In this document: positions 35,675 through 49,447 of the stretch, piece by piece
Numbering within the stretch: position 1 is the stretch's first letter
Layout: every line of letters begins with the position of its first letter
Source: an uncultured Gammaproteobacteria bacterium
GTDB taxonomy: Bacteria; Patescibacteriota; Patescibacteriia; Magasanikbacterales; GWA2-37-8
Assembly (NCBI GenBank): GCA_964596525.1
Contig: CAZQUL010000001.1
Span: 1,147,773-1,211,772 of the forward strand
Reading direction: 5' to 3'
DNA length: 64,000 nt
Notes under the pieces: model-generated
Seen by the model: only the letters and a program-made list of their open reading frames with translations
What the model was told of the DNA's origin: nothing
The model's database searches: none
Program-made: the position numbers and the translations under genes

Positions 35675-35708
35675 CCGGTGGTTTTCTGAACGTTTTTAAC
35701 TTAGCCGT

Positions 35709-36824
35709 TTAGTTGCTGGTGGAGGTAACGAGCGGGGGGACGATCATTGTGGGCGTGGTGAAGACCATTGTCGGCTGAGACTGGATAAACGGCCGGTTTT
35801 GAGCGAGTTCGGCAATAATGGTTTCGAATTTCTTGTAATCTGCGGGCATTACGACCGGACGGCCGGAGCCAAAATGCTCAAAAGTCATACGCATATTAAC
35901 CGTAAGATTATCGGTTTTATTCTTATTGACAGCAGATGACACGGAGAACGAAAGAAGTTCAGGCAACATGGTCCGCTTGTTCACAATAAGATCGGCCGAG
36001 AACGCAGGGAGCTTGGTAAAGAGCTTGTTGAGCTCGCGGATATCGGAGGCACTGGGTTTCTCACCGATGATTTTGGAGATATCGAGTATGAAGAGGCGAG
36101 CACCGACCGGATTCAGCTTGAGGCGCAAGCGGTAGGCCGGAGCACCGCTCGCATCTTTGGCATCGGCGACGCGCGTAGCAGTAACGACATTACGACTCCA
36201 GAAAGCCTTTTCAATCTTAGCGTTCATTTCTTTCATTTTGGCTTCGTCGGCGCTAAGTGGATTGCTGTACGAAGGGTTTTCCGCAGAGGTACCCTGCACG
36301 CCCAGAAGCGGCATTAAAGCCGGATTAAGGAAAGCATTCGGCACCGTCTGCTGGTCGATACGGATCCAGGTATTGAGATATTTACTCAAATCAAAACCGA
36401 GAGATGCAGTTGAGGTAGGCAGACTAAACCCGCTGACGCGGAAATTAAGTGTACCAGCTTCATCACCGACCATTTCAAGGAGTGGAGATTGTCCGGTGGC
36501 GGGATTATAGAAGGTTACGGCGGTGCTGTACGTCTTGGCCACCTGGTCGGCCGAACCGGTAAAGTAAGTGCGGAATTCTTGACCCTGGGCCAAAAAAGCG
36601 AGCGATGGGTCGATGGCCTCCTGACGGAGTTCTTCCGGCAAGACGATACCGACCCGGCCAGCGAAATCGTATGAGGGTAGCTTCTCTAGATTAGCGAACG
36701 ATTGTTTGAAGATAGTTTGTGCCAACGGCGTTGCGGCAGCTGCTGGGAGGGGAATGAAAGCGCCGAAGAGAGCGAGTATTGCCAACCCGGCAATGCCGCG
36801 CTTGAACGAGAAGGACATAAGCAA
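35709..36824 (-). CDS. Secreted protein, hypothetical (signal peptide)
   Basis: N-terminal signal sequence; no recognisable family. Confidence 0.5.
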   Translation of the reverse strand: MLMSFSFKRGIAGLAILALFGAFIPLPAAAATPLAQTIFKQSFANLEKLPSYDFAGRVGIVLPEELRQEAIDPSLAFLAQGQEFRTYFTGSADQVAKTYSTAVTFYNPATGQSPLLEMVGDEAGTLNFRVSGFSLPTSTASLGFDLSKYLNTWIRIDQQTVPNAFLNPALMPLLGVQGTSAENPSYSNPLSADEAKMKEMNAKIEKAFWSRNVVTATRVADAKDASGAPAYRLRLKLNPVGARLFILDISKIIGEKPSASDIRELNKLFTKLPAFSADLIVNKRTMLPELLSFSVSSAVNKNKTDNLTVNMRMTFEHFGSGRPVVMPADYKKFETIIAELAQNRPFIQSQPTMVFTTPTMIVPPLVTSTSN

Positions 36825-36941
36825 AGATGGTTAGTATAGATTAATTCCTTATATAAGTATCGTAGAGATATGAAATAAGGAAGTCAAGAGACAATTAGAA
36901 TTTCGGATTAACTCTCGGTATTGCACGATTATCAGGGAACT

Positions 36942-38045
36942 TTACAACACATCACGCAGTTCTTCGAGCTTACGCTTAAGTTCTTTGGATACTTTGCGCG
37001 GTACGTTGATTTTGAGCTCAACATAGAGATCACCGCGCGTCGAGGGACGATTGAGAACCGGAATACCGTGATGTTTGAGCCGGATACGTTGACCATGCTC
37101 AGAACCTTCAGGAATTTCTATCTTAAGCATTCCTTCGAGCGACTCGATCTCGACGGTATCGCCCAAAACAGCTTGCGTAAAGCTGATAGTTTTTTCTACA
37201 TACACATCGAACCCTTCACGGCGAAAACCTTTGAGCGGTTTAAGATGGACCGCGACGTACAGGTCACCTTTCACGCCGCCATGAGGAGCAGCTTCGCCCA
37301 AACCCGTAAGACGGATGGACTGCCCCGCGTCGATACCGGCGGGAATCTTGACCGTGTGCTTGACGGTTTTCGCAAGAATACCGTCACCACCACAGTGTTT
37401 GCATTTTTTAGCCGCATGCTCTCCCCTACCTTGACAGGTCGGGCACGGGGCAACCGTCTGCATGGTACCCAAAAAGGTGCGCTGATTCTGCACCACCTGG
37501 CCGCGTCCGTGGCAGGTACCGCATGTTTCCATTTTACTCCCGGGTTCGGCGCCACTGCCGGTACAAACTTCACACGTGTCTTGTTTGCGCAGCTGGATTT
37601 CTTTTTCCACGCCAAAAGCCGCTTCTTTAAAATCAAGTTCAATATCGACTTGAATGTCATTACCGCGCGCCCGGCCGCCTCCCCGCCCACCGCCGCCGAA
37701 ACCAAAGAGGTCGCCGAACATATCGCCGAAATCCATGCCGCCGAAATTGAAGTTGAAGTTGCCCTGCCCTCCACCGCCGCGCGTCGCGCGCATGAAATCT
37801 TCCCAATTCATACCGCCGCCAAAGCCGCCCTGCTGCTCAAAATCGGAACCGAACTGGTCGTAACGTTTACGTTTTTCCGCATCGTTAAGAACTTGGTATG
37901 CTTCATTGATTTCCTTAAACTTCTTTTCATCGCCCGTCGGGCGGTCGGGGTGATACTGCAACGCAAGCTTTTTGAAAGCTTTCTTTATATCGTCGGGAGA
38001 GGCGTTTTTTTCGACGCCGAGAATTTTGTAATAATCTTTGGACAT
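36942..38045 (-). CDS. dnaJ: Chaperone DnaJ
   Basis: J-domain HPD, Gly/Phe-rich region, four CxxCxGxG zinc-finger repeats. Confidence 0.9.
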   Translation of the reverse strand: MSKDYYKILGVEKNASPDDIKKAFKKLALQYHPDRPTGDEKKFKEINEAYQVLNDAEKRKRYDQFGSDFEQQGGFGGGMNWEDFMRATRGGGGQGNFNFNFGGMDFGDMFGDLFGFGGGGRGGGRARGNDIQVDIELDFKEAAFGVEKEIQLRKQDTCEVCTGSGAEPGSKMETCGTCHGRGQVVQNQRTFLGTMQTVAPCPTCQGRGEHAAKKCKHCGGDGILAKTVKHTVKIPAGIDAGQSIRLTGLGEAAPHGGVKGDLYVAVHLKPLKGFRREGFDVYVEKTISFTQAVLGDTVEIESLEGMLKIEIPEGSEHGQRIRLKHHGIPVLNRPSTRGDLYVELKINVPRKVSKELKRKLEELRDVL

Positions 38046-38224
38046 AAGGGAAATGAGGCTAGCGGATGATTATAGTACGGGATACTAGGCAGGAAATAAG
38101 AATTGCGATTTTTAAATAGATTTTTTCATACAAAGCATCCACAGGTATTATTGAATACATCGATAAAACCAGTAAACTGCATGCGCGGCCATTTATGGCT
38201 TGAACTAAAAACTGAGGTGGAACA

Positions 38225-38470
38225 ATGCGCACGTCCCTGTTTGCACTCCTGGTTTCCAGCGCCCTGTTTACTGGGGTGACGATTGGTTATACGCTCGAGA
38301 AGGGCAAACCAATCGTGAGGATCAAGCAGTCCTCCGCCAAGGCCAAGGCTGATGATGGTGAATCGACCAAGTGCAAAACCTGCACGACTAATGCTGACTG
38401 CACAGGCGGCGCGCCGTGCGGCAGCACATGCATCCAATCGATCGTACCAGACTATAAGTACTGCGGCTAA
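38225..38470 (+). CDS. Small cysteine-rich protein with N-terminal hydrophobic segment (signal peptide or anchor), family member A (6 Cys)
   Basis: SD GAGGTGG; hydrophobic N-terminal segment ...FTGVTIGY; C-terminus KCKTCTTNADCTGGAPCGSTC; terminator downstream. Confidence 0.6.
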   Translation: MRTSLFALLVSSALFTGVTIGYTLEKGKPIVRIKQSSAKAKADDGESTKCKTCTTNADCTGGAPCGSTCIQSIVPDYKYCG

Positions 38471-38498
38471 CAATCACTCCAAGCCACCCGCCCAATCA

Positions 38499-38535
38499 TC
38501 AGGCGCGTTTGAAACGCGCGTGATGATTTTTTTAT
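38499..38535 (+). terminator. Intrinsic terminator (caggcgcgtt-tgaa-acgcgcgtg plus T7)
   Basis: Read directly. Confidence 0.65.
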
Positions 38536-38740
38536 TTAAACAGAACCGGCTTGAATCGATCGAAATGCTGCTAAAAAAGGGAGCTGTGCGTGTAACTTCT
38601 TTCTTAAATCCGCTGTAATGTACCTGATTTGACTTGACAAATCAATCGGTTAGGAGTAAGGTGAGCTGTCCTAGCAGGATTTTCCGTACCCCCTATTTGT
38701 AACAACAGGAGGTGAGACATGGACCACTGAGGAGGTGCCC

Positions 38741-39082
38741 ATGTTCCAGGTTACGTATTGGACGCACGATGATCCCACCCGCTCACGCTGCATTGATCTT
38801 TTTCCTGCCGACCCTCGCTTCCCGATGGTGTGCATCTGGACCCAGGTTGAGTTCGCAGCCGAAGCGTGGGATGTGACCGTCGACCCGGAGGGTTTCACGA
38901 TCGTTCCTCAGCCGCCGGAGATCGTCGAGCCTTGTGAAATGGCGAGTGAGATCATCGACGTCGTGGTGGCGGATTCCCCTATCGCGACGGCACTCATCGA
39001 CGCGATTCTGGCCTTTATCGTGGCCACGACGCCGCACCAGGATGCGCTCTACGCTGGCCTCAGCCATCCGCAGCACGCTTAG
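38741..39082 (+). CDS. Acidic cytoplasmic protein, hypothetical (114 aa)
   Basis: SD GAGGAGG 6 nt before the ATG; no TM; promoter-like TTGACA-17-TAAGGT about 100 nt upstream. Confidence 0.45.
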   Translation: MFQVTYWTHDDPTRSRCIDLFPADPRFPMVCIWTQVEFAAEAWDVTVDPEGFTIVPQPPEIVEPCEMASEIIDVVVADSPIATALIDAILAFIVATTPHQDALYAGLSHPQHA

Positions 39083-39178
39083 CTCCAAGCCCCCCCGCGG
39101 GGCTTTTATGTTTGTTGACTAAGCAGGATTTTCTTGATACGTTCTCTTGCGGATTCATAGACCAACGGAGGACACCAG

Positions 39179-39475
39179 ATGAAAAAACGTCGCGGTTATC
39201 AGCGCTTATGGGTAATGCTTGGCGCGATGATGATCTCTTCTTTACTCGATAACGCAGCCCGTAATTATTCTCGAGAAACAACGCTTACCGCCAGAGTGCC
39301 ACAAGCATGCGCAGTTACCGGTTGCGGTACGGTCTGTACGAGCGACAACGAATGCCTAAACGACCGATGTCCCGACTGCGTAAAAAAAGGAGACCGCCAT
39401 GTGTGCTCAAAGATCGTAGACGAACGGACAGCCGGAAGCATCCGATTCACTACCCCCTCACGCTCACAGCATTAA
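39179..39475 (+). CDS. Small cysteine-rich protein with N-terminal hydrophobic segment (signal peptide or anchor), family member B (7 Cys)
   Basis: SD ACGGAGG; promoter TTGACT...TGaTACGTT; ACAVTGCGTVCTSDNECLNDRCPDC. Confidence 0.6.
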   Translation: MKKRRGYQRLWVMLGAMMISSLLDNAARNYSRETTLTARVPQACAVTGCGTVCTSDNECLNDRCPDCVKKGDRHVCSKIVDERTAGSIRFTTPSRSQH

Positions 39476-39503
39476 GCGCCACACTCGGGTGTTGAGCGCT
39501 TTT

Positions 39504-40124
39504 TCATTTAAAAACTACGGCAACCGATACGCTCGGAACGAGCAAACCCACCAAACGGCGTATTTCCTCTTCAGTCTCTCTCTGGATTTCCTGCCGCAGT
39601 TCGGGAGTTTGAGCAGCCTTTTCCGCCTCTGTTTTAAGGGCAGTAAGCGCTTGATTATATCCATCGTCGCTATCAAAGATCTTTTTGAGTACGCCTTGGG
39701 TATTTTTAACTGTCACCGCCCCGATAATTTCGGTACTATAGTGAGTCGGAAGCGGCAGGGCGATGGTTAATTGGCCGCCGCTCTCTTGAATATCGGCTGC
39801 GGCAAGTTTAGATAAATCGACACCCGAACTTATCTTTACGTGCGCGCTCGCGGAAATGTATTGTTTCCAGAGCACGTCTTTAAAGAAACTACCCGCAGTG
39901 TTGTTGATATCCACGGTTTGATTGAAGAGGTATGTTTGTGTAATAAGAAAGCCTTGTCCACGCAATGCTAAAAGGATGGTTTGGGACGTAGGTCGGGATG
40001 TTTCCGTTTCTGTCTTTCGATAGAGGCTGCGAGCGGTAAAAAAACCGCCGATGAACACAGCCGCGACGCACGCGGCAACGATGAGATATTTTTTAGGCAT
40101 ACGATGTTCTACAGACTTATCCAA
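39504..40124 (-). CDS. Membrane-anchored protein, possibly DUF4230-like, hypothetical
   Basis: Single N-terminal TM; about 200 aa. Confidence 0.45.
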   Translation of the reverse strand: MDKSVEHRMPKKYLIVAACVAAVFIGGFFTARSLYRKTETETSRPTSQTILLALRGQGFLITQTYLFNQTVDINNTAGSFFKDVLWKQYISASAHVKISSGVDLSKLAAADIQESGGQLTIALPLPTHYSTEIIGAVTVKNTQGVLKKIFDSDDGYNQALTALKTEAEKAAQTPELRQEIQRETEEEIRRLVGLLVPSVSVAVVFK

Positions 40125-40132
40125 AATATACT

Positions 40133-40160
40133 TGACTATTTTATCATGTTTAATATACTG
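40133..40160 (+). promoter_or_regulatory. Strong sigma70-like promoter TTGACT-16-TATACT for Cys-rich gene C
   Basis: Read directly. Confidence 0.5.
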
Positions 40161-40195
40161 TGTTTTGCCTTGATAACCCCAGAGGAGAACACATC

Positions 40196-40399
40196 GTGAA
40201 CAAGGTTAGAGCCTTAATCGTAGCTAGCACCACCGCGTTGACCATTCTTACCGGAATTGCGGCCGATCGTTTATGGAACGGCCGTTGGTTCTGGAAAAAT
40301 TCGGCGTGTGCCGGAATCGGCGAATGCATTCGCAATTCCTGCACGCAGCAGATGCAGTGTTCCGGCAATTGTAAGTGCATAAATAATATCTGCCAGTAG
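40196..40399 (+). CDS. Small cysteine-rich protein with N-terminal hydrophobic segment (signal peptide or anchor), family member C (7 Cys)
   Basis: GTG start with GAGGAG SD; ACAGIGECIRNSCTQQMQCSGNCKC. Confidence 0.55.
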   Translation: MNKVRALIVASTTALTILTGIAADRLWNGRWFWKNSACAGIGECIRNSCTQQMQCSGNCKCINNICQ

Positions 40400-40532
40400 G
40401 CCACGCCGCAAACGCCCCAAGGAGGGCTTTTTTGTAATCAGATTTTCACCTCTATTGACAAATAACTTACACCCCGGTTATCGTTAGAGATGTTCTTCTA
40501 AACAAACCACCCACACGAAGAAAGGAAGAGCC

Positions 40533-40823
40533 ATGCGCATGGGAAGCCTCCATCTGCCGAATTTTAAAAAAGCTTCTATTCTCTTGGGCATTACTTGTAT
40601 TTTTTCCGGACTCACCTGCAGCTTCCCATCCTCGCCAGGAAATAGACTGCCGACCATCGCCGTCAATCAGGCGTGCAGCGAAGGAAATTCTAATTGCCAG
40701 GTGTGTACTGAGGACAGGGAGTGTTCTGGAGCAGCGTGCGGGCCAAAATGCGATTGGTGGGTTTACATCGGACAAGTACCGGTCGAAAAGTATGGAAAAC
40801 GCTGCCGCGATCAGGTGCGCTAA
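40533..40823 (+). CDS. Small cysteine-rich protein with N-terminal hydrophobic segment (signal peptide or anchor), family member D
   Basis: SD AAGGAAG; hydrophobic N-terminus; ACSEGNSNCQVCTEDRECSGAACGPKC. Confidence 0.55.
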   Translation: MRMGSLHLPNFKKASILLGITCIFSGLTCSFPSSPGNRLPTIAVNQACSEGNSNCQVCTEDRECSGAACGPKCDWWVYIGQVPVEKYGKRCRDQVR

Positions 40824-40862
40824 AGAGGCTTTTCTATCTTGGCCCTGCAACCTTAGGAGGAC

Positions 40863-41123
40863 ATGATGCGACTAAGATCTCTCTCGAAACGTACGAGGAT
40901 AGGTATTTTCGCAGCTCTCGCGCTCACCACTACCTTTTTCGGCGGCGTGACGATCAAGCGCAATTTTCTTGAGCCGTCGCCGCGGGCAGCCTGCGCTTCT
41001 GGCGGATGTACCGCGGATTGTACAGCGAGCGGCAGCTGTAGCGGCGACTGCACCTGTAACGGCTCTGTCGGCGACAAGAAGCGCAGTTGCGTATCTCCTC
41101 CGGGCGGCCACGTCGGCCGCTAG
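40863..41123 (+). CDS. Small cysteine-rich protein with N-terminal hydrophobic segment (signal peptide or anchor), family member E (7 Cys)
   Basis: SD TAGGAGG; leader ...FGGVTIK; ACASGGCTADCTASGSCSGDCTC; terminator downstream. Confidence 0.6.
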   Translation: MMRLRSLSKRTRIGIFAALALTTTFFGGVTIKRNFLEPSPRAACASGGCTADCTASGSCSGDCTCNGSVGDKKRSCVSPPGGHVGR

Positions 41124-41296
41124 GATGAGCTGAACTGGGCAGAATATAGACTGTTTCTCCCACGCGCCTTAACGGCGCTTTTTTATTAATCTGCGTACTT
41201 ACTTCAATTTATTTTATCTTGACAATTCGCTGAACCGACCACATAATTCACATGGCCTTGAAAGAACAACATGATTACGAAAAAGGATGAGAACCC

Positions 41297-41710
41297 ATGC
41301 ACAATCCGCTCAAGAACCTGACTCGGACCAAACTCGCGATCGGTTTTTCGGTCGTCATTTCTGGTCTATTATCCGGAGTAACGATTGGCCGCCAGCACGG
41401 GCCCTTCAAGCAGAACAAGGCTTGCGCCGGGGATCGCGAGTGCGAGCCAACCTGTTCTAAAAATGAAGACTGCCACAGCATGTGCAAGTGCTGCATCCAA
41501 AAAGGTCGATCGACTGGAAAGTGCATTCAGAAGTGCACGAAGTGCGACACGAACGGCCCTATCGCCTCCTGGCTGGACCAGATGCTGTCGATCCCCACGG
41601 CAGCGGCAGACTGCCGGCCGGTTAATGCTTGTGAAGACGACTCCGACTGCCTAATGCCCGGTTCGCGGTGTGTCTCCACGCCGTGCGGAAACCGCTGCCA
41701 GGGAAAATGA
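41297..41710 (+). CDS. Cysteine-rich protein with N-terminal hydrophobic segment (signal peptide or anchor), family member F (two Cys-rich modules, 19 Cys)
   Basis: Promoter TTGACA-17-CATAAT; leader ...LSGVTIGR; ACAGDRECEPTCSKNEDCHSMCKCC plus a second Cys-rich module; terminator downstream. Confidence 0.6.
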   Translation: MHNPLKNLTRTKLAIGFSVVISGLLSGVTIGRQHGPFKQNKACAGDRECEPTCSKNEDCHSMCKCCIQKGRSTGKCIQKCTKCDTNGPIASWLDQMLSIPTAAADCRPVNACEDDSDCLMPGSRCVSTPCGNRCQGK

Positions 41711-41771
41711 ACAGTATCCTCCCCTAGTCAGCGCTACACTTGAAAGTAGCGCTTCTGGATCATAACCGCCT

Positions 41772-41797
41772 TTAGGCGGTTTTTTCATCCAAACATC
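41772..41797 (+). terminator. Intrinsic terminator (aaccgcc-tttag-gcggtt plus T6)
   Basis: Read directly. Confidence 0.6.
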
Positions 41798-41839
41798 TAA
41801 CCCCGTGCCACGCACAGGGTTAGTCTGTTTAGCGGCGAG

Positions 41840-43753
41840 CTATTTTACCACTTCGCCTTCAATCGGACCTTCATCTTTCTTGTCATTCGATGCTCCAGCA
41901 TCAGATCCTGGTGCGGCTCCCCCGCCCTGCTTAGCCTGCTGTTCCTGCGCGTACATCTTGGTTCCGACCGCCTGCGCTGCATTCGAGAGCTCGTCAACAG
42001 CTTTCTTCATCGCTTCTACATCATCCTTGTCTTTCACTTCCTTGAGTTTTGCGAGTCCTTCCTGGACTTTCTTTTTCTCATCGTCAGTAATGGAAGAAAT
42101 CTTTTTCTCTTCCACGTCCTTCATCATCTTTTCGGTCGTGTAGATCATCGTGTCGGCGATGTTGCGCGCTTCGATGAGTTCTTGTTTTTTCTTGTCTTCG
42201 CCAGCATGCGCTTCAGCATCTTTTTTCATGCGTTCGATTTCGTCTTTCGACAAACCGGTCGAAGCTTCGATGCGCACCGACTGTTCTTTGCCGGTCGCTT
42301 TGTCTTTGGCCTTCACGTTCAAGATGCCGTTAGCATCGATGTCGAAGGTTACTTCGACCTGCGGTACGCCGCGCGGAGCCGGCGGGATATCGCCGAGGAT
42401 GAACCGTCCGAGCGTCTTGTTATCTCCTGCCATCGGGCGCTCGCCCTGGAGTACGTGGATTTCCACACTCGGCTGATTGTCCGAGGCAGTCGAGAAGACC
42501 TGCGATTTGCTCGCCGGGATCGTGGTATTGCGTTCGATGAGTTTGGTCATCACGCCACCCATGGTTTCGATACCAAGAGAAAGCGGGGTGACATCAAGAA
42601 GAAGCACGTCTTTTACATCACCGCGGAGTACGCCTCCCTGTACCGCCGCGCCGACCGCGACGACTTCGTCGGGGTTCACGCTGATATTGGGTTTTTTGTT
42701 GAAGAATTTTTCGACCGAGGAGTAGACGAGCGGCATGCGCGTCATACCGCCGACCATCACGACTTCGTCAATCTGGCTCGTCGAGAGCTTGGCGTCTTCA
42801 AGCGCGCGCTTGACCGGTTCCATGGTTTTTTTAACCAGATCACCGACCAATTCTTCGAGCTTGGCACGGGTAAGTTTCATCACCAAGTGCTTCGGACCAG
42901 TCGCATCCGACGTGATGAACGGTTGGTTGATTTCGGATTCCTGCGCAGTCGAAAGTTCGATCTTCGCTTTTTCGGCAGCTTCTTTGATGCGCTGCAGAGC
43001 GAGCGGATCTTTGGAGAGATCGATGGTTTCGGTTTTCTTGAATTCATCGAGGATCCAGCGGATAATAACCTGATCGAAGTCATCGCCGCCAAGATGCGTA
43101 TCGCCGTTCGTCGAAAGCACCTGTACCGAGTCGGCGCTTACTTCGAGCACTGATACGTCGAACGTGCCGCCGCCGAGGTCGTAAACCATGATTTTCTGGT
43201 CTTTCTTTTTATCGAAACCGTAAGCGAGCGCGGCTGCGGTCGGTTCGTTGATGATGCGGAGCACTTTCAGACCCGCGATCTCGCCCGCATCTTTGGTGGC
43301 CTGGCGCTGCGCATCGTCGAAGTACGCCGGAACGGTGATAACCGCTTCGGTGATTTTTTCACCCACGCGCTCTTCGGCATCAGCTTTGAGTTTCTGAAGC
43401 ACCATCGCCGAGATTTCCTGCGGCGTGTATTCTTTGCCGCCCATCACGACTTTCACGCCTTCGCCGGACTTGATGATCTTGTACGGCATCAGGTTCAGGT
43501 CGCGCTGCACTTCGGCATCATCCCACTTGCGGCCGATAAGGCGCTTGATGGAATAGAGCGTGTTTTCCGGGTTGGTGACGGCCTGGCGCTTGGCCAGCTG
43601 ACCCACGAGGCGCTCGGCGCTTTTCGAGGTCGCGATCATGGACGGCGTCGTGCGCGCGCCTTCCTTGTTTTCTAATACTTTCGGCTGGCCGCCTTCGATG
43701 ATGGCCATGCACGAATTGGTTGTACCGAGGTCGATTCCGAGGACTTTGGACAT
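41840..43753 (-). CDS. dnaK: Chaperone DnaK (Hsp70)
   Basis: [16 protein letters not shown] and other Hsp70 signatures; start at M15. Confidence 0.9.
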
Positions 43754-43757
43754 AGAA

Positions 43758-44177
43758 TTATCTATTAGAGTTATAAATATGAGGCTTAAATACATTCACA
43801 GATTTTTTATTCTCCGGAAAAACTAGCAATTCATTACTACATTCTTGATTAGGGCATTTAAAATTATCTTCGTTTGAATTAACTGGGACAAGTCTCATGG
43901 CAATTTGTTTTTTATCCCAGCAGGATGTGCAAAATGGCCCTCTTTCATGCATGGGTATTTTTTTATCCTTGAGCCAATAAGTATAGTTAATAACCTCTAT
44001 ACTTTCTTTAAACTTCAGTTTCTCCATTAAATCCTGATTTTTTTCTTTTAGAGCTGCATTTTCTGCAAGTAATTTACTTACATCTTTTTGCAACTCAAGG
44101 ACATTATTATGCAATTCAATGTTTCGAGCTTGCCCAGCCAGGTCAGCTAAAGTTTTAAGATTATCTAGAATAGCCAT
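43758..44177 (-). CDS. Coiled-coil protein with a C-terminal CxxC...CxxxC zinc ribbon, hypothetical (AT-rich)
   Basis: CTSCWDKK...CPNQEC; markedly AT-rich codon usage compared with the flanks. Confidence 0.45.
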
Positions 44178-44180
44178 AAA

Positions 44181-44672
44181 TTAACTTAAAATTTTAACTA
44201 AAATTTTCCTCTTCATTTCATAACCAGAATTTTCATAAAACTTTATAACCTTTTCATTAGCACTTTCAACTTCAAGAAAAATTCTAGTACAATCCTTCTC
44301 TTTTAAATATTTCTCAATTTCTTCAATTAACCTTGAACCAATGCCTAATTTCCTCACTTCTTCTCTCACAAATAACTCAAGAATAAAACCATTCTTATTC
44401 TCCCCCTCCGCAATCCGCTCAGTTTCTTCCTGATCTTCAATGATACCTGCCGTAAAACCGACAATCTTACCATCATCAAGCGCCACGAACATCCGACCAT
44501 CCTTTTCTTCGAGAGATTTAAGCAGCGCAGGCACAAAAGCTTTTCCGAATTCCGGCGAGCGACTCGAACGAACAGGCTGTTCGAGTCCGGCGTAATAATC
44601 TTCAAACTCATTCATGAGACGGATTATCGAATCTGTGTCGCCGGTTTTAAATTCTCGAATCGAGATATCCAT
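44181..44672 (-). CDS. GNAT-family N-acetyltransferase
   Basis: Acetyl-CoA motif A-like RKLGIGSRLIEEIEKY; start at M18. Confidence 0.6.
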   Translation of the reverse strand: MDISIREFKTGDTDSIIRLMNEFEDYYAGLEQPVRSSRSPEFGKAFVPALLKSLEEKDGRMFVALDDGKIVGFTAGIIEDQEETERIAEGENKNGFILELFVREEVRKLGIGSRLIEEIEKYLKEKDCTRIFLEVESANEKVIKFYENSGYEMKRKILVKILS

Positions 44673-44685
44673 AACAGACGAATGA

Positions 44686-45255
44686 TTATTTAATCGGATC
44701 CGCCTCCAAATAAATATCCGCAAACCTCTTCTTCATCAATTTAACGTGCGTTTCGCGGATACTATCCGAAAAATCTTCCGGCTTAACACCCCATTTCTGT
44801 AATTCCGATTCAATATCTTCCGCGGTTTTTTTGACAATCAATACCGACGGAAATTTCTCTACTGAACGAATTTCTTCTCGCAAGAACTGCTGCCACGTGC
44901 CGTCGATGACCCATTCCTCCTTGTCGATTTCGGCGTTTATATAGTCGTGCTCGGTAACCACCCATCCACCGGGATATTCGTAGATCTGAGCGTTCGGCGC
45001 GATTTCTTTAACCAGCGGGAGAAGCTCTTCGCACACGACTATGCACGTACCTTTCTTAAAAACATCGGCCGCGTTCATTTTGCGCAGAGCGGCAACTTTT
45101 TCGTAGGCCTGATTCGTCATGTCAATGAGACGCTTTTTGATTTCGTTTTTTTCTTTGTTTTCTTTAAAACCGGAATCTCTCTGGCCAATGTTAGGGCGAA
45201 GCGTATCCATAGGATTACTTTTTGATTTCACTACCAACCTTTTTAATCTCTCCAT
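44686..45255 (-). CDS. Hypothetical protein (start uncertain; M16 at 45210 would avoid overlap with the upstream gene)
   Basis: ORF only. Confidence 0.35.
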   Translation of the reverse strand: MERLKRLVVKSKSNPMDTLRPNIGQRDSGFKENKEKNEIKKRLIDMTNQAYEKVAALRKMNAADVFKKGTCIVVCEELLPLVKEIAPNAQIYEYPGGWVVTEHDYINAEIDKEEWVIDGTWQQFLREEIRSVEKFPSVLIVKKTAEDIESELQKWGVKPEDFSDSIRETHVKLMKKRFADIYLEADPIK

Positions 45256-45760
45256 ACATCCAATACCCCCACAGTGCCGTAACGATCAGTTCAAAATACC
45301 GCCCGAACACGCGCGCGAACACGACGAATCCGTCGAACACCGCACCCGACACAGACCGAGGAAGGAAGAGCGTGACGATTTCAAACGCAAGCTGGAAAAG
45401 TAAAACGTAGAACAAGGCGTAAAAATACATATTCACCATGCGCCACATCGTAACGCTCGAATTTTTTATGGCCGGCACAAATTGTTTAAGACCATAACCG
45501 ACGACGCAGGTGGCCAGCAGACGCACTGCCGTAACACGCACCACAATAGCGATGACCGCAAAAACAGCAAACGCCAAAAAGCCCGCTGGCATCTGTTCTT
45601 TCACCTGGGTAAAAGCAGCAAAACCACCAAAAGCTAACGTGGCCGTAATAATAGCAAGCACTAACAGGACGGCATCAATAACCACGAGCTGCCACGCCAA
45701 TTTCGTCGATGACAACTCCGGCAAAAACTTCTGTGGTGAAAAAATATTTTTCCAATTCAT
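45215..45760 (-). CDS. Multi-TM membrane protein, hypothetical
   Basis: 4-5 hydrophobic helices. Confidence 0.45.
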   Translation of the reverse strand: MNWKNIFSPQKFLPELSSTKLAWQLVVIDAVLLVLAIITATLAFGGFAAFTQVKEQMPAGFLAFAVFAVIAIVVRVTAVRLLATCVVGYGLKQFVPAIKNSSVTMWRMVNMYFYALFYVLLFQLAFEIVTLFLPRSVSGAVFDGFVVFARVFGRYFELIVTALWGYWMYGEIKKVGSEIKK

Positions 45761-45841
45761 AGATGGGTTACAGAGAATTAGGCTTTCAGACCCCGACTGG
45801 TTGCGTGCAACGAGTCGGGCATCTGAAGGACCAATCGCGGT

Positions 45842-46276
45842 TTATTTCTTATTCACTTTCACTTCGATCTTTTTCGCCACTGTCGCCTCGGCTTTTGGGC
45901 AGCTGATTTTGAGCATTCCGTTCTCGAATTCAGCACTGACTTTGTCTTCCATTACCTGGGTCGGGAGGAGTACTTCACGATAGAACGAACCACTCCGTAC
46001 TTCTTTGCGGTAATAATTCTTCTCATCCACTTCGTGTTCGCGCTTGCTTTCACCTTTGATGGTGAGCACGCCTTTTTGCACGGTAATTTCTACATCTTCG
46101 GGCTTTACTCCGGCGAGCGGAGTTTCTACCATTACGGCTTTGTCCGTTTCATACACGTCAAGCGCTGGCACGAACGATTTGAGGGATTTTCCCGGCACCA
46201 CCATCGGGAAACGATCATTGAACATGTCTTCCATGTCTTTGAAGGCATCCATGGGAGACCAACGAATGAGTGACAT
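45842..46276 (-). CDS. Small heat-shock protein (Hsp20/alpha-crystallin)
   Basis: MSLIRW...alpha-crystallin domain; start at the ATG with AGGAG 6 nt upstream (track GTG start 46291). Confidence 0.8.
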   Translation of the reverse strand: MSLIRWSPMDAFKDMEDMFNDRFPMVVPGKSLKSFVPALDVYETDKAVMVETPLAGVKPEDVEITVQKGVLTIKGESKREHEVDEKNYYRKEVRSGSFYREVLLPTQVMEDKVSAEFENGMLKISCPKAEATVAKKIEVKVNKK

Positions 46277-46340
46277 ATACTTCTCCTGCACCTACAGTGT
46301 CGTAAGGCAAAGCAGGTGCTTAAGAATAAATAGTTTCTTC

Positions 46341-46401
46341 GTCATTGCGAGGAGCACAGCGATAAAGCAATCCCCAGTCGTTCCTCCTTCCTCGCAATGA
46401 C
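46341..46401. repeat. Palindromic intergenic repeat element, copy 2 (12-bp perfect stem gtcattgcgagg/cctcgcaatgac) in the hsp20 upstream region
   Basis: Shares arms and core with the copy at 8254-8360. Confidence 0.6.
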
Positions 46402-46408
46402 ATAACTA

Positions 46409-46957
46409 TTACTTTGCAACCATTACTTTCGCCACTTTAACGACTTTTCCGGCCAGTACATACCCGCCGTCCAGCTCGCGGATAATCTCGCCCGCTTTCT
46501 TTCCTTCCATATCTTCCTCGCCTACCGCTTCATGGCGCGAGGGATCGAATTGTTCACCGACGGTTTTTATTTCTTCGATGCCGTTATTTTTGAGCACGTC
46601 GCCGAATTGCTTCATGATGAATCCAATACCGGCCGCCCAATTTTCTTGCTCTTTGCTCCAACCATCCTGCTTTTTACTTGCGAACGCTTTCTTGAAATTG
46701 TCGTAGACCGGAATGAAGTCTTCGAGAATCTGAAGCTTGCTCATCTGTGCCCATTCGCTACGACGCGCAGCGGTTTCTTTTTGGAGGTTTTGATAATCAG
46801 CAAGAGCGCGCTGCCAGCCTTGCTTGTATTCTTCGCACTGTTTGGCGAGCGTATCGTCAAGCGGAGCGGCTTGAGGTTCATTCGGCTGCGATTGCGCCTG
46901 AGAAACATCGTTGGCATTCTGGATCTGTTCCTCATTATCAGGTGTTGTATCGAACAT
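46409..46957 (-). CDS. grpE: Nucleotide exchange factor GrpE
   Basis: Coiled-coil N-terminus and GrpE C-terminal beta domain. Confidence 0.8.
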   Translation of the reverse strand: MFDTTPDNEEQIQNANDVSQAQSQPNEPQAAPLDDTLAKQCEEYKQGWQRALADYQNLQKETAARRSEWAQMSKLQILEDFIPVYDNFKKAFASKKQDGWSKEQENWAAGIGFIMKQFGDVLKNNGIEEIKTVGEQFDPSRHEAVGEEDMEGKKAGEIIRELDGGYVLAGKVVKVAKVMVAK

Positions 46958-46969
46958 AGCGGTAAAAAA

Positions 46970-47659
46970 TTAGTTCCGTAAAAGTTCTGCGGCTTTGGCG
47001 ATGAGCGGCACATGATAGGTGTAATCCATGCGCTCCGGGCCGAGCATGATAAGGAGCTCGTCTTCTGCCCCCCAGCGCACCGCAACAAGGCCAAGACGCT
47101 CACCGAACGGATGTTCGCTGCCTACAAAGCACGTGGGAACGCTCGGCGCTTGTGGAGCGAAGAGCTGCACACAACGCTCGAATTGATCGAAAAGGCGCGA
47201 AAAGTTGGTGATTTCTTCAACATCTTTAAATTCCGGCTGGGCGAAAAGGCTGGAGAGTCCGGTATAATAGAATGAGCTGAGCGAAAAGGTGACAAGTACG
47301 AGTTCGGAGGTAAGTTCAACGAGCGTTTTAGCTACTTCTTTTTTCTGACGCTCCAGGTCTTTTCCGTCACGATGCGCGGATTCGAGCGCAGACTCATCAC
47401 GACGAGACAACTTTCCTTTGGTCCAATCGATGTTATTTAGATATTGTCGAAAGCCTTTGCTCGTGGGGATGCGTCCAGCCGAAGTGTGCGGATGGGTAAG
47501 AAAGCCATCTTCTTCGAGCGCGCGCAGGTCATTTCGCACCGTTGCCTCACTCCAATCAAGCCCGCCTTCGGCTACCAGAAATTTGGATCCTACCGGTTCG
47601 GCGGTCTTGATATAGTGATTGACGACAAGTTCGAAGAGGTGGTACTGGCGTTCGTTCAT
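46970..47659 (-). CDS. hrcA: Heat-inducible transcriptional repressor HrcA
   Basis: wHTH N-terminus (PVGSKFL) plus the HrcA C-terminal domain; start at M17. Confidence 0.75.
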   Translation of the reverse strand: MNERQYHLFELVVNHYIKTAEPVGSKFLVAEGGLDWSEATVRNDLRALEEDGFLTHPHTSAGRIPTSKGFRQYLNNIDWTKGKLSRRDESALESAHRDGKDLERQKKEVAKTLVELTSELVLVTFSLSSFYYTGLSSLFAQPEFKDVEEITNFSRLFDQFERCVQLFAPQAPSVPTCFVGSEHPFGERLGLVAVRWGAEDELLIMLGPERMDYTYHVPLIAKAAELLRN

Positions 47660-47663
47660 ATGA

Positions 47664-47690
47664 TTATCACTCTTACTGTCTGAGTGATAA
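47664..47690. promoter_or_regulatory. CIRCE-like operator TTATCACTC-N9-GAGTGATAA immediately upstream of hrcA
   Basis: Perfect 9-bp inverted repeat with a 9-nt spacer; CIRCE consensus is TTAGCACTC-N9-GAGTGCTAA. Confidence 0.7.
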
Positions 47691-47790
47691 TATAGCACTC
47701 CCCTCACTCGGTCTCAAGCAAAGTTATACACAACTCGAATCCCTCTGTAGATATGCTATAGTATGCCCTGTTACCTTAAGGAGAACCGAG

Positions 47791-48075
47791 ATGAATAAGA
47801 CCGCGCGCCGTTGGTTTGGATATTTTCTGGTCGGGGCCACCATTACTCTTGTCTACGGTGGCACCCGTGCCGAGTCCCCTCGGGCTTATACCCATGAGTC
47901 GCTTACCGCAGCCGTGAATAACAACAAGGCTGCCGCCCAAAATCAGGGCCGAAGCGGATGCAGCGGAGGCGGAAGCTCGTCAACCTCCGGCTCCCCGCCC
48001 AGCCCATCCTCTGCCGATTCCGCAGCGTCGGAAGCAAACAGCCCGCTCGATTCCCCGGCCATGAGCGCGCCCTAG
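47791..48075 (+). CDS. Small secreted Ser/Gly-rich protein, hypothetical
   Basis: SD AAGGAG; signal peptide; terminator downstream. Confidence 0.5.
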   Translation: MNKTARRWFGYFLVGATITLVYGGTRAESPRAYTHESLTAAVNNNKAAAQNQGRSGCSGGGSSSTSGSPPSPSSADSAASEANSPLDSPAMSAP

Positions 48076-48120
48076 TCGCGCACCATAACCCACCCTCATC
48101 GCCCGCGATGGGGGTTTAAT

Positions 48121-48156
48121 TAAAACAACCCTGATGTGTGTCAGGGTTGTTTTAAT
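48121..48156. terminator. Bidirectional terminator (aacaaccctga-tgtgtg-tcagggttgtt)
   Basis: 11-bp stem with A/T flanks. Confidence 0.65.
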
Positions 48157-48170
48157 TACTGCAAGGTGAG

Positions 48171-48737
48171 CTAATCCGGAATAGGAGAGATGTCACCGAA
48201 GAGCACATTCTCCACGTAGATACCGCGCGCATAAAAAATACGCTCAAGCTCACCTTTAAGATCGTTTTCCACTTCGATACGGCGCGAACCGATGATGTCT
48301 TGGTAGCTATAACGGCTAAAAACCATGCGAATACGGCTCCGGATGGTAGGACGAACGATTTTGGCAACAAAATCTTCGCCGATGGCCTGCCAGAGACCCG
48401 GAATCTGGTGCACGTCGAGACGTAAAAGAATCGTACCTTCAACTGCAACACGCTTGCCTTCTACCGTAACGCCGGCAATGGGAATATCGCCCAGCGCTTT
48501 CTCGTGTTCAGGCTTGAACTGACGGGTGATGCTGTATTCGAGCGTCTGCGTGTTGAACAGTTTGGCTTTTTGCCAGAATGGAATTTTGAGGTGCAGTCCG
48601 GGAGTAAGAACTTTTTTGAGCACCCCGCGCCCTAAATCGTACACGCAGGCCACATACCCGGGCGGAACGTAGATGAAAAGGCCCTTGAGTACGTCGTCAA
48701 CGACGAAGGAGTACATCAGTTTATCAATATCGGCCAT
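48171..48737 (-). CDS. SPFH/Band-7 domain protein (short, no TM)
   Basis: YVPPGYVACVYDLGRGVLKKVLTPGLHLKIPFWQ fits the SPFH core. Confidence 0.5.
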   Translation of the reverse strand: MADIDKLMYSFVVDDVLKGLFIYVPPGYVACVYDLGRGVLKKVLTPGLHLKIPFWQKAKLFNTQTLEYSITRQFKPEHEKALGDIPIAGVTVEGKRVAVEGTILLRLDVHQIPGLWQAIGEDFVAKIVRPTIRSRIRMVFSRYSYQDIIGSRRIEVENDLKGELERIFYARGIYVENVLFGDISPIPD

Positions 48738-48745
48738 AGAAAAGG

Positions 48746-49447
48746 TTAGGACTTGAGCTCTTTGCGACCATGGATGAGCATAAACAGCAGTTTAATACTA
48801 TCCGAAAAGATAGCGGTGGTCAATACAAAAAGCGACTTAACCATGGGCAAGTACCACAAAAAAACAAAGACCGCGAGCGGAAAAAAGATAAGAAAATAAA
48901 CATCGGATTTTTCCCAGCTTTTCTTGCGTAAAAGCCCCCAGGCGACAGTGGAAACCAAAAGATACCCGGCCGCAGCGACGGCCCACCCGAGCTGGTGGCT
49001 TTTGCCGATTTCAAAACCTAAAAATACAGTATTGAGTTTGCCCGGGTAACTCACACCCGGATAGAGGTCGTGGATGATACGCTCGTTACTGACACCATGG
49101 ATGAAAACTTGGTACAAAACCAAAATCATCGCTGCTTGTGCAGCTAACGTAAAAACACGTGCCCAGGGAGAAATACGATGCTTTTTCATCAGGCGGCGCA
49201 CCTCTTCTTCTTGTGCCACCGGATCGTTTTTGTAGATCTCACGCGCTTCAAGAGCGGCCTGTTCGATGAGCTGCTCTTTAAGGGCGCTGCGCTCTGACAA
49301 AATGCTGAAAGGAAGAAGAATTACACGCAAACATGCGGTCATGATAATAACCGCAACGCCTAAATTCTGACCGGCAACATGCGTATAAATCAGGATGAGG
49401 GCGTTCAACAGGGGCTGAAAGAGTGCAAAAAACCACAGTTGAGACAT
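48746..49447 (-). CDS. yidC: Membrane protein insertase, YidC/Oxa1 family (short form)
   Basis: Five-TM core with the conserved LPFSILSERS-type region. Confidence 0.65.
   Translation of the reverse strand: MSQLWFFALFQPLLNALILIYTHVAGQNLGVAVIIMTACLRVILLPFSILSERSALKEQLIEQAALEAREIYKNDPVAQEEEVRRLMKKHRISPWARVFTLAAQAAMILVLYQVFIHGVSNERIIHDLYPGVSYPGKLNTVFLGFEIGKSHQLGWAVAAAGYLLVSTVAWGLLRKKSWEKSDVYFLIFFPLAVFVFLWYLPMVKSLFVLTTAIFSDSIKLLFMLIHGRKELKS

Follow-up and report, generated by a model that had tools for sequence, protein, structure and literature searches.

The locus described here lies in a 64-kb stretch of DNA (the window, meaning the whole of the stretch analysed) and comprises, in minus-strand order, hrcA, grpE, hsp20, four extra genes, dnaK, a block of about 3.8 kb, and dnaJ (Table 1). 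Pfam identified the genes and bore out the order and identities given in a preliminary description of this DNA, with the chaperone genes and the four extra genes all on the minus strand. The gap before dnaK, counted from grpE/hsp20, was 2088 nt, and that between dnaK and dnaJ was 3794 nt.

Table 1. Features of the hrcA-dnaJ locus, in minus-strand order
Feature	Position	Strand	Remarks
DnaA-box-like 9-mer TGTGTATAA	47724-47732	-	shortly upstream of hrcA -35
hrcA promoter TTGAGA, 17-nt spacer, TG-n-TATATT	47689-47717	-	10/12 match, extended TG; window sequence TGcTATATT
CIRCE operator TTATCACTC-N9-GAGTGATAA	47664-47690	.	perfect copy of clade-specific variant; arms match canonical form at 16/18
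hrcA	46970-47659	-	short form, 229 aa; PF01628
grpE	46409-46957	-	PF01025, E 1e-36
Palindromic element, 13-bp stem GTCATTGCGAGGA...TCCTCGCAATGAC	46341-46401	-	window-specific
hsp20	45842-46276	-	Pfam
Stem-loop 3' of hsp20	45776-45836	-	no U tract; -29 kcal/mol, z -3.7
Multi-pass membrane protein	45215-45760	-	181 aa; after hsp20
ORFan	44686-45210	-	174 aa; cargo gene
GNAT acetyltransferase	44181-44672	-	Pfam; GC 0.38, GC3 0.34
Coiled-coil + Zn-ribbon protein	43758-44177	-	139 aa; GC 0.32, GC3 0.26
dnaK	41840-43753	-	PF00012, 855 bits
Hairpin 3' of dnaK, CTAACCCTGTGC-GTG-GCACGGGGTTAG	41797-41823	-	conserved
Terminator of convergent Cys-rich gene	41764-41781	+	stem and T run
Cys-rich paralogue 6	41297-41710	+	137 aa
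Cys-rich paralogue 5	40863-41123	+	85-86 aa
Cys-rich paralogue 4	40533-40823	+	96 aa
Cys-rich paralogue 3	40160-40399	+	67-79 aa
DUF4230 membrane-anchored protein	39504-40124	-	embedded in Cys-rich block; strand as dnaK/dnaJ
Cys-rich paralogue 2	39179-39475	+	98 aa
Unrelated ORF in Cys-rich block	38735-39082	+	113-115 aa
Cys-rich paralogue 1	38225-38470	+	81 aa
dnaJ upstream region	38046-38224	-	no CIRCE-like sequence; best matrix score -15.5 bits
dnaJ	36942-38045	-	J domain, CXXCXGXG zinc finger, C-terminal domain

The hrcA promoter and its CIRCE operator

The CIRCE element lies exactly where the preliminary description had placed it, with the hrcA ATG 4 nt downstream, and of all sites in the 64 kb it alone came within three mismatches of the canonical consensus (expected number 0.01). 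The hrcA promoter is of the sigma-70 type, and its -10 element shares its final two T with CIRCE, which begins with them (a 2-base overlap). The same fixed geometry recurred in the 31 related Magasanikbacteria loci that formed our comparison set: CIRCE keeps a fixed distance from TTGAC-N17-TATATT, usually 1-19 nt ahead of the hrcA ATG, and its arms were invariant and its spacer variable in 31/32 Magasanikbacteria loci. A clade-specific matrix scored 34.6 bits at the window's hrcA, 25-35 bits in 31 of the 32 loci, and 8.8 bits in L073. Scanning the 64 kb with this matrix revealed no second CIRCE-like site, the next best having at least 5 mismatches in the 18 arm positions. In every Magasanikbacteria locus, scores in the 400 nt ahead of either dnaK or dnaJ stayed at or below about -5 bits, and CIRCE was missing before these genes in all 31 relatives, whether the two were adjacent or kilobases apart. 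The claim that no second CIRCE precedes dnaK or dnaJ therefore held in the window and in the relatives, and confinement of CIRCE to hrcA is a clade-wide rule, irrespective of whether dnaK and dnaJ adjoin. Metagenome contigs carrying the exact CIRCE variant (120 retrieved, with an assignable downstream gene in 94) placed it ahead of groES (43), hrcA (28), clpB (15), dnaK (5), and hsp20 (3), and never ahead of dnaJ. The groESL and clpB genes of this genome are located outside the window, and the regulon is seen here at the hrcA locus only.

The HrcA encoded in the window is short (about 229 aa, some 110 residues below canonical HrcA) and scored under the TIGR00331 cut-off (143 versus 197 bits); its mode of regulation, such as GroEL dependence, may differ from the canonical one. 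As for the DnaA-box-like 9-mer, its clade form is TGTGGATAA, from which the window copy departs by one mismatch, and the exact 9-mer was found at hrcA promoters in 14/32 genome loci and 12/28 metagenome loci.

The grpE-dnaK region and its cargo genes

Present in 15 of the 31 relatives, hsp20 is an old, optional component of the operon. In the window, the interval between grpE and hsp20 includes approximately 68 nt of extra sequence. Part of this is the palindromic element, which is absent from L082 and L086 and has a second, imperfect copy at 8254-8360. The stem-loop 3' of hsp20 displayed 7 compensatory pairs among three sequences and z < -2 in 12/18 loci, and in each of the three close genomes the start codon of the following gene lies only about 15-30 nt further on (about 15 nt in the window).

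The four genes that follow had been described as AT-rich. This holds for the Zn-ribbon (GC 0.32) and GNAT (GC 0.38) genes, against a window GC of 0.51, whereas the membrane-protein gene and the ORFan have a native-like GC of 0.45-0.47. The GNAT gene was probably acquired recently, as was, probably, the Zn-ribbon gene. Homologues of the membrane protein occupy the same position in L086 (42% identity) and L082 (28%), and GNAT homologues (36-38% identity) lie in the hsp20-dnaK interval of L065, directly before dnaK, and of L080, one small ORF before dnaK. The Zn-ribbon protein has 790 unnamed family representatives, and the ORFan matched only itself among 5.8 billion proteins. Sequence comparison shows that the membrane protein is lineage cargo common to the closest relatives and that the ORFan and the compositionally foreign GNAT/Zn-ribbon pair are specific to the window genome. 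All four genes are co-directional with hsp20 and dnaK, with intergenic distances of 3-13 nt, and the Zn-ribbon gene stops 4 nt short of dnaK. Because this packing leaves no room for a terminator and a promoter, the cargo most likely rides on the hrcA transcript, in line with the earlier suggestion, made as a condition, of dnaK co-transcription from the hrcA promoter. Promoter-like hexamers inside the AT-rich cargo (43863-43891, 44240-44269, and 44623-44651), the first being TTGTCC-17-GATAAT about 110 nt ahead of dnaK, fall in DNA of 29-39% GC, where chance matches are common.

The dnaK-dnaJ interval

The hairpin 3' of dnaK has almost the same sequence in the window, L082, and L086 (z -6.4, computed jointly with the adjacent hairpin), reached z < -2 in 21/33 loci, and is a probable terminator or stabiliser. 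Convergent to dnaK, the plus strand at 38225-41710 carries six paralogous genes for small signal-peptide/Cys-rich proteins, an expanded family confined to the window species and L086, and one unrelated ORF. Of the six Cys-rich genes, three have a promoter-like site (10-11/12 matches) ahead of them and three a terminator-like site behind them; a terminator-like site also lies behind the unrelated ORF. The interval earlier described as a 3.7-kb Cys-rich array on the opposite strand is not one unit, as it includes the unrelated ORF and the minus-strand DUF4230 gene. The latter has a counterpart at the same position in L067, and L086 probably contains the start of one (a weak match at the contig end). 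Because convergent genes and terminators separate dnaJ from dnaK, dnaJ must, on this arrangement, have its own control, as had been anticipated. The region upstream of dnaJ offers a perfect TATAAT (38069-38074), though its -35 is poor, as well as a weaker candidate, TTTACT-18-AATAAT (38147-38176), and the promoter assignment is weak. Promoter prediction, suggested earlier as a check, yielded a weak non-CIRCE candidate at dnaJ and no conserved motif ahead of dnaK in the 31 relatives.

Variation among related loci

The order yidC-band7-hrcA-grpE-(hsp20)-dnaK-dnaJ was kept across the 31 related loci, with gaps of 23-2809 nt before dnaK and 5-2566 nt between dnaK and dnaJ. These exceeded 300 nt in 17/31 and 21/29 cases, respectively, compared with 0/31 for yidC-band7 and 0/15 for grpE-hsp20. 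Compact and expanded states were interleaved on a DnaK+HrcA+GrpE tree, 55 of the 87 gap ORFs were singletons, and the cargo was mostly unrelated between loci, with differing extra genes in almost every relative. Both junctions flanking dnaK are, by these comparisons, clade-wide variable slots in which unrelated accessory genes have come and gone repeatedly. Some loci (L008, L020, and L021) were strictly compact (gaps 5-40 nt), and some relatives had a grpE-dnaK or hsp20-dnaK gap of only 23-46 nt. L082, with a DnaK 93% identical, carries hsp20, the membrane-protein homologue, a 148-aa gene, dnaK, and, after 97 nt, dnaJ; L086 carries hsp20, a 95-aa gene, the membrane-protein homologue, a 195-aa gene, dnaK, a convergent Cys-rich gene, and the DUF4230 start. 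The interruption seen in the window recurs in part in relatives, through the membrane-protein gene in L082 and L086 and the Cys-rich gene followed by DUF4230 after dnaK in L086.

Interpretation

We consider it likely that the locus is a standard autoregulated HrcA/CIRCE class-I heat-shock operon of the Candidatus Magasanikbacteria type (Patescibacteria/CPR), with variable slots, stress-induced passengers, and dnaJ set apart. HrcA at CIRCE would block RNA polymerase at the -10 element and the transcription start. On stress, the transcript would proceed from hrcA through grpE, hsp20, and the four cargo genes into dnaK, thereby making the cargo genes stress-induced passengers; stem-loops after grpE and after hsp20 may modulate transcription on the way, and the conserved hairpin 3' of dnaK would end it. 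The region from hrcA to dnaK is most likely one HrcA-repressed operon with conserved hairpins along it, and we infer its co-transcription and heat inducibility from the DNA. With some 3.8 kb of opposing transcription units and of terminators in between, dnaJ would be cut off and may depend on a weak promoter of its own that lacks CIRCE, its expression probably being constitutive.

The preliminary description had instead attributed the split to two insertions, and an ancestrally contiguous hrcA-grpE-dnaK-dnaJ, broken by two discrete recent insertions that orphaned dnaJ from HrcA, would agree with the strictly compact loci, the 97-nt dnaK-dnaJ gap in L082, the foreign composition of the GNAT and Zn-ribbon genes, and the restricted Cys-rich family. 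Yet the cargo genes differ in age and form a mosaic, which two events would not give: the membrane protein is common to L082 and L086, DUF4230 recurs in the distant L067 and probably in L086, a Cys-rich gene follows dnaK in L086, and GNAT genes fill the same slot in L065 and L080. Both junctions, moreover, vary in the majority of the 31 relatives, which goes against insertions peculiar to this genome, and dnaJ was partly uncoupled before any insertion because a hairpin parts it from dnaK even where the two adjoin. Two recent insertions are therefore an unlikely origin, although this account retains some chance of being right.

In a further reading, which seems unlikely, the HrcA-controlled unit stops at the hsp20 hairpin, and an internal promoter without CIRCE (e.g., inside hsp20 or the AT-rich cargo) serves the genes from the membrane protein through to dnaK. 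The -29 kcal/mol stem-loop, whose conserved structure shows compensatory changes, might terminate transcription efficiently despite its absent U tract, in which case the genes from the membrane protein through dnaK would need an unrecognised promoter and dnaK would be outside HrcA control in the window genome. Promoter-like sites such as that at 43863-43891 exist within the cargo, and in other Patescibacteria (L033 and L045) a dnaK detached from grpE has its own CIRCE, making separate dnaK units possible. However, the hairpin has no U tract, the proximity of the next start codon in the three close genomes means that no promoter fits downstream of the hairpin, the internal matches occur where GC is low, and the relatives share no promoter motif before dnaK. 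Those with 23-46 nt gaps before dnaK must co-transcribe it, and escape of the main chaperone from the regulon's only recognisable regulator is unlikely.

The locus is not an assembly artefact, because independent Logan assemblies from two other samples, together covering both junctions, reproduced it (L001, 100% identity over 43155-49585; L208, 99.8% over 33822-42572, spanning dnaJ, the entire Cys-rich block, and part of dnaK) and synteny with L082 was kept on both flanks; a false joining of unrelated contigs during assembly or binning, raised only since the source is probably a metagenome-derived genome and favoured by no point that we found, has a negligible probability.

According to PMC2952846, which cites Homuth 1997 and 1999, the heptacistronic dnaK operon of B. 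subtilis (hrcA-grpE-dnaK-dnaJ-yqeT-yqeU-yqeV) is under HrcA/CIRCE control, with a heat-inducible promoter at hrcA, a separate constitutive promoter at dnaJ, methyltransferase passengers, and post-transcriptionally processed transcripts. By that account, the two operons share CIRCE and a sigma-A-type promoter ahead of an autoregulated hrcA, co-transcribed non-chaperone passengers (predicted here), and a promoter for dnaJ (a candidate here). In the window, however, the passengers follow hsp20 and precede dnaK instead of coming behind dnaJ, convergent genes occupying 3.8 kb keep dnaJ physically apart, a G-to-T and C-to-A change affects the two CIRCE arms symmetrically, HrcA falls short by about 110 residues, and the operon includes hsp20. 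In Helicobacter pylori and Chlamydia trachomatis, HrcA/CIRCE controls hrcA-grpE-dnaK and groESL, and dnaJ is outside the operon (PMC6032397, PMC8762339); Chlamydia has an extra internal promoter ahead of dnaK (PMC8762339). Those operons are compact, with added regulators (HspR or alternative sigma factors), whereas no elements of such regulators were found at the window locus, where dnaJ still lies downstream in the same orientation, as a vestige of the four-gene order. Moranbacteria- and Paceibacteria-type loci of other Patescibacteria (L026-L078) share the hrcA-grpE-(hsp20)-dnaK backbone, CIRCE at the hrcA promoter, and a short HrcA (~246 aa). They differ from the window in having the canonical TTAGCACTC-N9-GAGTGCTAA with the -35 (TTGAC) within the CIRCE spacer, and several with a detached dnaJ (L027, L032, L042, and L075) or a detached dnaK (L033 and L045) have a second CIRCE, unlike any Magasanikbacteria-type locus, the window included. 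Both a dnaJ without CIRCE and passengers that are not chaperones have precedents in B. subtilis, H. pylori, and Chlamydia (PMC2952846, PMC6032397, PMC8762339). A split chaperone operon looks odd, yet it is ordinary for the Magasanikbacteria-type group.

Organization of the hrcA-dnaJ locus

Our re-reading of the region (ORF listing, Pfam, and NCBIfam) confirmed the split heat-shock gene order of the preliminary description, with hrcA, grpE, dnaK, and dnaJ keeping their order and orientation despite their separation. The locus is real, because two independent assemblies from other sequencing runs reproduced both junctions beside dnaK (grpE/hsp20-dnaK and dnaK-dnaJ, hereafter slots) at 100% and 99.8% identity. 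The four genes are not contiguous: 2.1 kb with four genes (the cargo) lies ahead of dnaK, and 3.8 kb with seven convergent ORFs and one co-directional gene, together with terminators, lies ahead of dnaJ. The cargo had been called AT-rich throughout, which is accurate for the Zn-ribbon (GC 0.32) and GNAT (GC 0.38) genes against a window mean of 0.51, whereas the other two are native-like. Likewise, the 3.7 kb described as a Cys-rich array does hold six paralogous Cys-rich genes, but also one unrelated plus-strand ORF and a minus-strand DUF4230 gene.

Features of the hrcA-dnaJ locus and of the other elements discussed, in window coordinates
Feature	Position	Strand	Remarks
Imperfect copy of palindromic element	8254-8360		
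dnaJ	36942-38045	minus	3.8 kb beyond dnaK
Upstream region of dnaJ	38046-38224		
TATAAT	38069-38074		perfect
Six paralogous Cys-rich genes	38225-41710	plus	about 67-137 aa; N-terminal hydrophobic segment and Cys-rich tail
dnaK	41840-43753	minus	
Zn-ribbon gene	43758-44177	minus	139 aa, coiled coil and Zn-ribbon
Direct repeat	43757-43778 and 44160-44181		22 nt, imperfect
GNAT acetyltransferase	44181-44672	minus	
ORFan	44686-45210	minus	174 aa
Membrane protein	45215-45760	minus	181 aa, multi-pass
hsp20	45842-46276	minus	
Palindromic element	46341-46401		between grpE and hsp20
grpE	46409-46957	minus	
hrcA	46970-47659	minus	229 aa, true ATG at 47659
CIRCE	47664-47690		
DnaA-box-like 9-mer	47724-47732		one mismatch
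Signal-peptide ORF	47791-48075	plus	94 aa, Ser/Gly/Pro-rich, GC 0.62
DUF4407 protein	59894-61855		
AAA_15/AbiEii-like ATPase	62348-63997		

Several other elements were recorded. The palindromic element, with 13-bp arms (GTCATTGCGAGGA...TCCTCGCAATGAC), is absent in the close relatives L082 and L086 and may be a small mobile or REP-like repeat. The 94-aa ORF, divergent from hrcA, is a third lineage-specific insertion between band7 and hrcA, a stretch that measures only about 100 nt in L082 and L086. Near the window end, the AAA_15/AbiEii-like ATPase and the DUF4407 protein may be defence-related; they are unrelated to the hrcA-dnaJ locus.

The CIRCE operator and its promoter

The CIRCE-like palindrome TTATCACTC-N9-GAGTGATAA occupies exactly the interval tabulated. 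The claim that CIRCE occurs only at hrcA was upheld within the 64 kb, in which this is the sole site with at most three mismatches to the canonical sequence (0.01 expected by chance); neither groEL nor clpB is in the 64-kb window, so the claim is a statement on the window. Scored with a matrix derived from the sites of the clade itself, the hrcA operator reaches 34.6 bits, and the runner-up in the window 4.2 bits with 5/18 arm mismatches. The arms match canonical TTAGCACTC-N9-GAGTGCTAA at 16 of 18 positions, and the two changes are symmetric, leaving a perfect palindrome with 9-bp arms and a 9-bp spacer. These arms are invariant in 31 of 32 Magasanikbacteria-type loci (TTATCACTC / GAGTGATAA, or GAGTGCTAA at the right), and the spacer varies freely.

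The promoter-operator geometry is equally fixed in the clade, reading cTTGAC, N17, (TG)gTATATT, with the final two T of the -10 element serving as the first two T of CIRCE. The operator in the window accordingly overlaps the -10 by 2 nt and ends 4 nt ahead of the hrcA ATG, which in the clade usually lies 1-19 nt past CIRCE. Overlap of -10 and CIRCE is the classical layout for repression by promoter occlusion. This geometry provides strong evidence for the predicted function of the hrcA CIRCE.

The presence of a single CIRCE is not a consequence of the insertions. The 400 nt upstream of dnaK or dnaJ contain nothing above about -5 bits in any Magasanikbacteria-type locus, and this holds for abutting genes and for genes kilobases apart alike, so the clade as a rule has its CIRCE at hrcA alone. 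Other Patescibacteria differ: they carry the canonical TTAGCACTC-N9-GAGTGCTAA and place the -35 within its spacer, and a second CIRCE is present in several whose dnaJ (L027, L032, L042, L075) or dnaK (L033, L045) is detached. Some Magasanikbacteria loci (L023, L024, L038) carry two tandem CIRCE elements upstream of hrcA, one holding the -35 (TTGAC) in its spacer, which is the standard layout in Moranbacteria-type loci (L026-L066).

A second motif was observed at hrcA promoters of the clade, a perfect DnaA-box 9-mer TGTGGATAA (the reverse complement of TTATCCACA), located about 8 nt upstream of the -35 or within the -35/-10 spacer. Exact copies occur at the hrcA promoter in 14 of 32 genome loci (e.g., L003, L010, L013, L019, L022, L072, L076), together half of the 29 exact copies counted across 645 kb, and in 12 of 28 independent metagenome hrcA promoters (loci L088-L207). 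The 9-mer is rarer elsewhere in the metagenome set (4/43 groES promoters, 0/15 clpB promoters). The window, L082, and L086 have one-mismatch versions, TGTGTATAA or TGTGCATAA.

A short HrcA

The repressor itself belongs to the HrcA family, with a winged helix and a C-terminal GAF-like domain (PF01628, 42.7 bits against a cut-off of 22.2) as well as helix-turn-helix matches, and residues 1-77 align to Thermotoga maritima HrcA (1STZ; E 6e-15). It falls below the full-length equivalog model TIGR00331 (338 positions; 143 bits against a cut-off of 197), and its Pfam match spans only profile positions 97-212 of 215. Canonical HrcA is about 340 aa long; the protein here has 229 aa, the median is 227 aa in 32 clade members, and sister Patescibacteria have about 246 aa. 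An AlphaFold model (pLDDT 91) superposed on 1STZ gave a TM-score of 0.81 when query-normalised and 0.59 when target-normalised, leaving about 100 residues of 1STZ unmatched. This suggests a short variant without the ~100-residue segment inserted in the C-terminal domain, presumably the dimerising domain of 1STZ, and the model is consistent with a kept winged helix and GAF-like core and the loss of about 100 residues.

Variable slots on a conserved backbone

By its DnaK relatives, the window falls within Candidatus Magasanikbacteria (Patescibacteria/CPR), and a yidC-band7-hrcA-grpE-(hsp20)-dnaK-dnaJ backbone on one strand is common to 31 genome loci. No relative exceeds 300 nt at the yidC-band7 junction (0/31; up to 205 nt) or the grpE-hsp20 junction (0/15; up to 168 nt). 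The gap between grpE/hsp20 and dnaK, 2088 nt in the window, is longer than 300 nt in 17/31 (23-2809 nt in relatives), and that between dnaK and dnaJ, here 3794 nt, in 21/29 (5-2566 nt). On a neighbour-joining tree of DnaK, HrcA, and GrpE, compact loci are interspersed with expanded ones. More than half of the ORFs in the relatives' gaps are singletons (55/87); recurrent ones include QueF, a YhhQ-like transporter, two GNAT types, DUF4230, a ~145-aa family after dnaK, and DUF3467-like proteins before dnaJ. The relatives' cargo is nearly all co-directional, and a convergent block occurs in this lineage only. No tRNA lies within or beside the two slots, and no convincing direct repeats flank them. 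An imperfect 22-nt direct repeat (77% identity) around the AT-rich Zn-ribbon gene is probably chance in AT-rich DNA, though it could be an insertion scar.

Two closer relatives, retrieved via HrcA homologues and each with a 93% identical DnaK, allowed the pieces to be dated. In L082, whose flanking synteny agrees with that of the window on either side, hsp20 is followed by a membrane-protein homologue, an unrelated 148-aa gene, dnaK, 97 nt, and dnaJ. L086 has three genes between hsp20 and dnaK, encoding in order a 95-aa protein, a homologue of the membrane protein (42% identity), and a 195-aa protein; past dnaK come a convergent gene of the window's Cys-rich family (96 aa) and, before the contig ends, a stretch that weakly matches the start of a DUF4230 gene. 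The interruption, which had been read as two insertions, is therefore shared only in part: the membrane protein recurs in both relatives and the Cys-rich/DUF4230 block in L086, but the rest is genome-specific. Since L082 and L086 share some pieces and not others, the cargo falls into three age classes: by its distribution, the membrane protein is an established operon member in this sub-clade, the Cys-rich/DUF4230 block is older than the split from L086, and the ORFan and the AT-rich GNAT/Zn-ribbon pair are specific to this genome. The dnaK neighbourhood of this lineage, judged by these comparisons, is a mosaic.

All cargo proteins looked up form singleton 90%-identity clusters, and the ORFan had no homologue except itself among 5.8 billion proteins. 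The Zn-ribbon protein belongs to an unnamed family of 790 representatives; a phage or defence origin is unsupported, as searches turned up neither relatives in viral contigs nor a PADLOC defence model, and its only PHROG matches are two function-unknown PHROGs. A toxin-antitoxin role for the GNAT was dropped, with no RHH/DUF1778 partner seen and no PADLOC match.

The ORFs of the Cys-rich block were recovered identically by independent gene calling. The six paralogues share five invariant Cys in a motif like AC-x3-5-C-x3-C-x5-6-C-x3-4-C; strong TTGAC-type promoter-like sites precede three of the six on the plus strand, and terminator-like sites follow three of the six and the unrelated plus-strand ORF. 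A profile search recovered the paralogues of this species only; one further homologue, a lone copy, lies past dnaK in L086. Given this distribution, the genes are a lineage-specific expansion and not, as had been considered, a widespread family. The 16 differences between the window and the strain contig L208 were not concentrated in the Cys-rich genes.

Predicted transcription and regulon

HrcA, predicted to bind at CIRCE, would repress the hrcA operon by promoter occlusion, and hrcA to dnaK would most likely form one HrcA-repressed transcript with the cargo genes as stress-induced passengers. The four cargo genes and dnaK are spaced 3-13 nt apart. A stem-loop after hsp20 (-29 kcal/mol, z -3.7), backed by seven compensatory pairs among three genomes and present in 12 of 18 hsp20-bearing loci, leaves no promoter room, since the next start codon follows within about 15-30 nt. 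If this hairpin were a true terminator, dnaK would depend on an internal promoter, and promoter-like hexamers do occur inside the cargo; however, they sit in AT-rich DNA and relatives lack a conserved promoter before dnaK, so we consider this arrangement rather unlikely. In the single-transcript model, the stem-loops would instead attenuate or stabilise parts of the message, comparable to the processed dnaK operon of Bacillus subtilis (PMC2952846).

The transcript would end at a hairpin past dnaK, which the window, L082, and L086 carry in nearly identical form; 21 of 33 loci have a stable hairpin at this place. Because a hairpin separates dnaK and dnaJ even where they are adjacent (L082, L019, L060, L070), dnaJ would have been partly uncoupled before the insertions. 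Behind seven convergent ORFs, it would be expressed from its own CIRCE-less promoter in the upstream region, which contains the TATAAT with a poor -35. No RNA thermometer or other known RNA was found in 36000-48500 (Rfam, E up to 1). Taken as a whole, the preliminary interpretation was partly supported.

Scanning metagenome contigs for the exact clade CIRCE variant yielded 120 loci, 94 with an assignable downstream gene: groES in 43, hrcA in 28, clpB in 15, dnaK in 5, hsp20 in 3, and dnaJ in none. In about 15 contigs (e.g., L094, L128, L154, L165, L169, L172, L178), TTATCACTC-N9-GAGTGATAA lies ahead of clpB (about 875 aa), so that clpB seems to belong to the HrcA regulon of these Patescibacteria. 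In the three hsp20 contigs, hsp20 stands alone behind the variant. The probable clade regulon comprises the hrcA operon together with groESL and clpB, to which hsp20 is added in some cases.

Relation to known systems and implications

By analogy, the system belongs to the HrcA/CIRCE class-I heat-shock regulons and would work like them; in such regulons HrcA is released on heat shock and its activity depends on GroEL. In the heptacistronic operon of B. subtilis, dnaJ has a constitutive promoter of its own and non-chaperone genes ride along as passengers (PMC2952846), and hrcA-grpE-dnaK operons without dnaJ occur in Helicobacter pylori (PMC6032397) and Chlamydia (PMC8762339). Compared with known HrcA/CIRCE systems, the present one differs in its symmetric clade-specific CIRCE change, the position and turnover of its passengers, and its short HrcA. 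We read the locus as an ordinary HrcA/CIRCE operon in a mosaic dnaK neighbourhood.

A far-reaching proposal would make the slots clade-wide integration hot spots, used as a stress-linked expression platform for fast-turnover accessory genes, with a second factor at the DnaA-box-like TGTGGATAA co-controlling the hrcA promoter and linking chaperones to DnaA and the cell cycle, and with the short HrcA, lacking its ~100-residue segment, as repressor. We regard this combination as improbable; if true, the platform would carry GNATs, queuosine-salvage genes, membrane proteins, and in this genome a growing family of small secreted Cys-rich proteins.

For Patescibacteria, a mosaic dnaK neighbourhood with a single CIRCE at hrcA appears to be the clade norm; a split operon in this group does not point to unusual regulation. 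The clean clade-specific CIRCE matrix, the fixed promoter-operator-start-codon module, the probable regulon, and the conserved hairpins punctuating the operon could guide annotation and metatranscriptomic work on the stress responses of these uncultured reduced-genome bacteria, and the short HrcA and the DnaA-box-like promoter motif offer cheap, testable leads.
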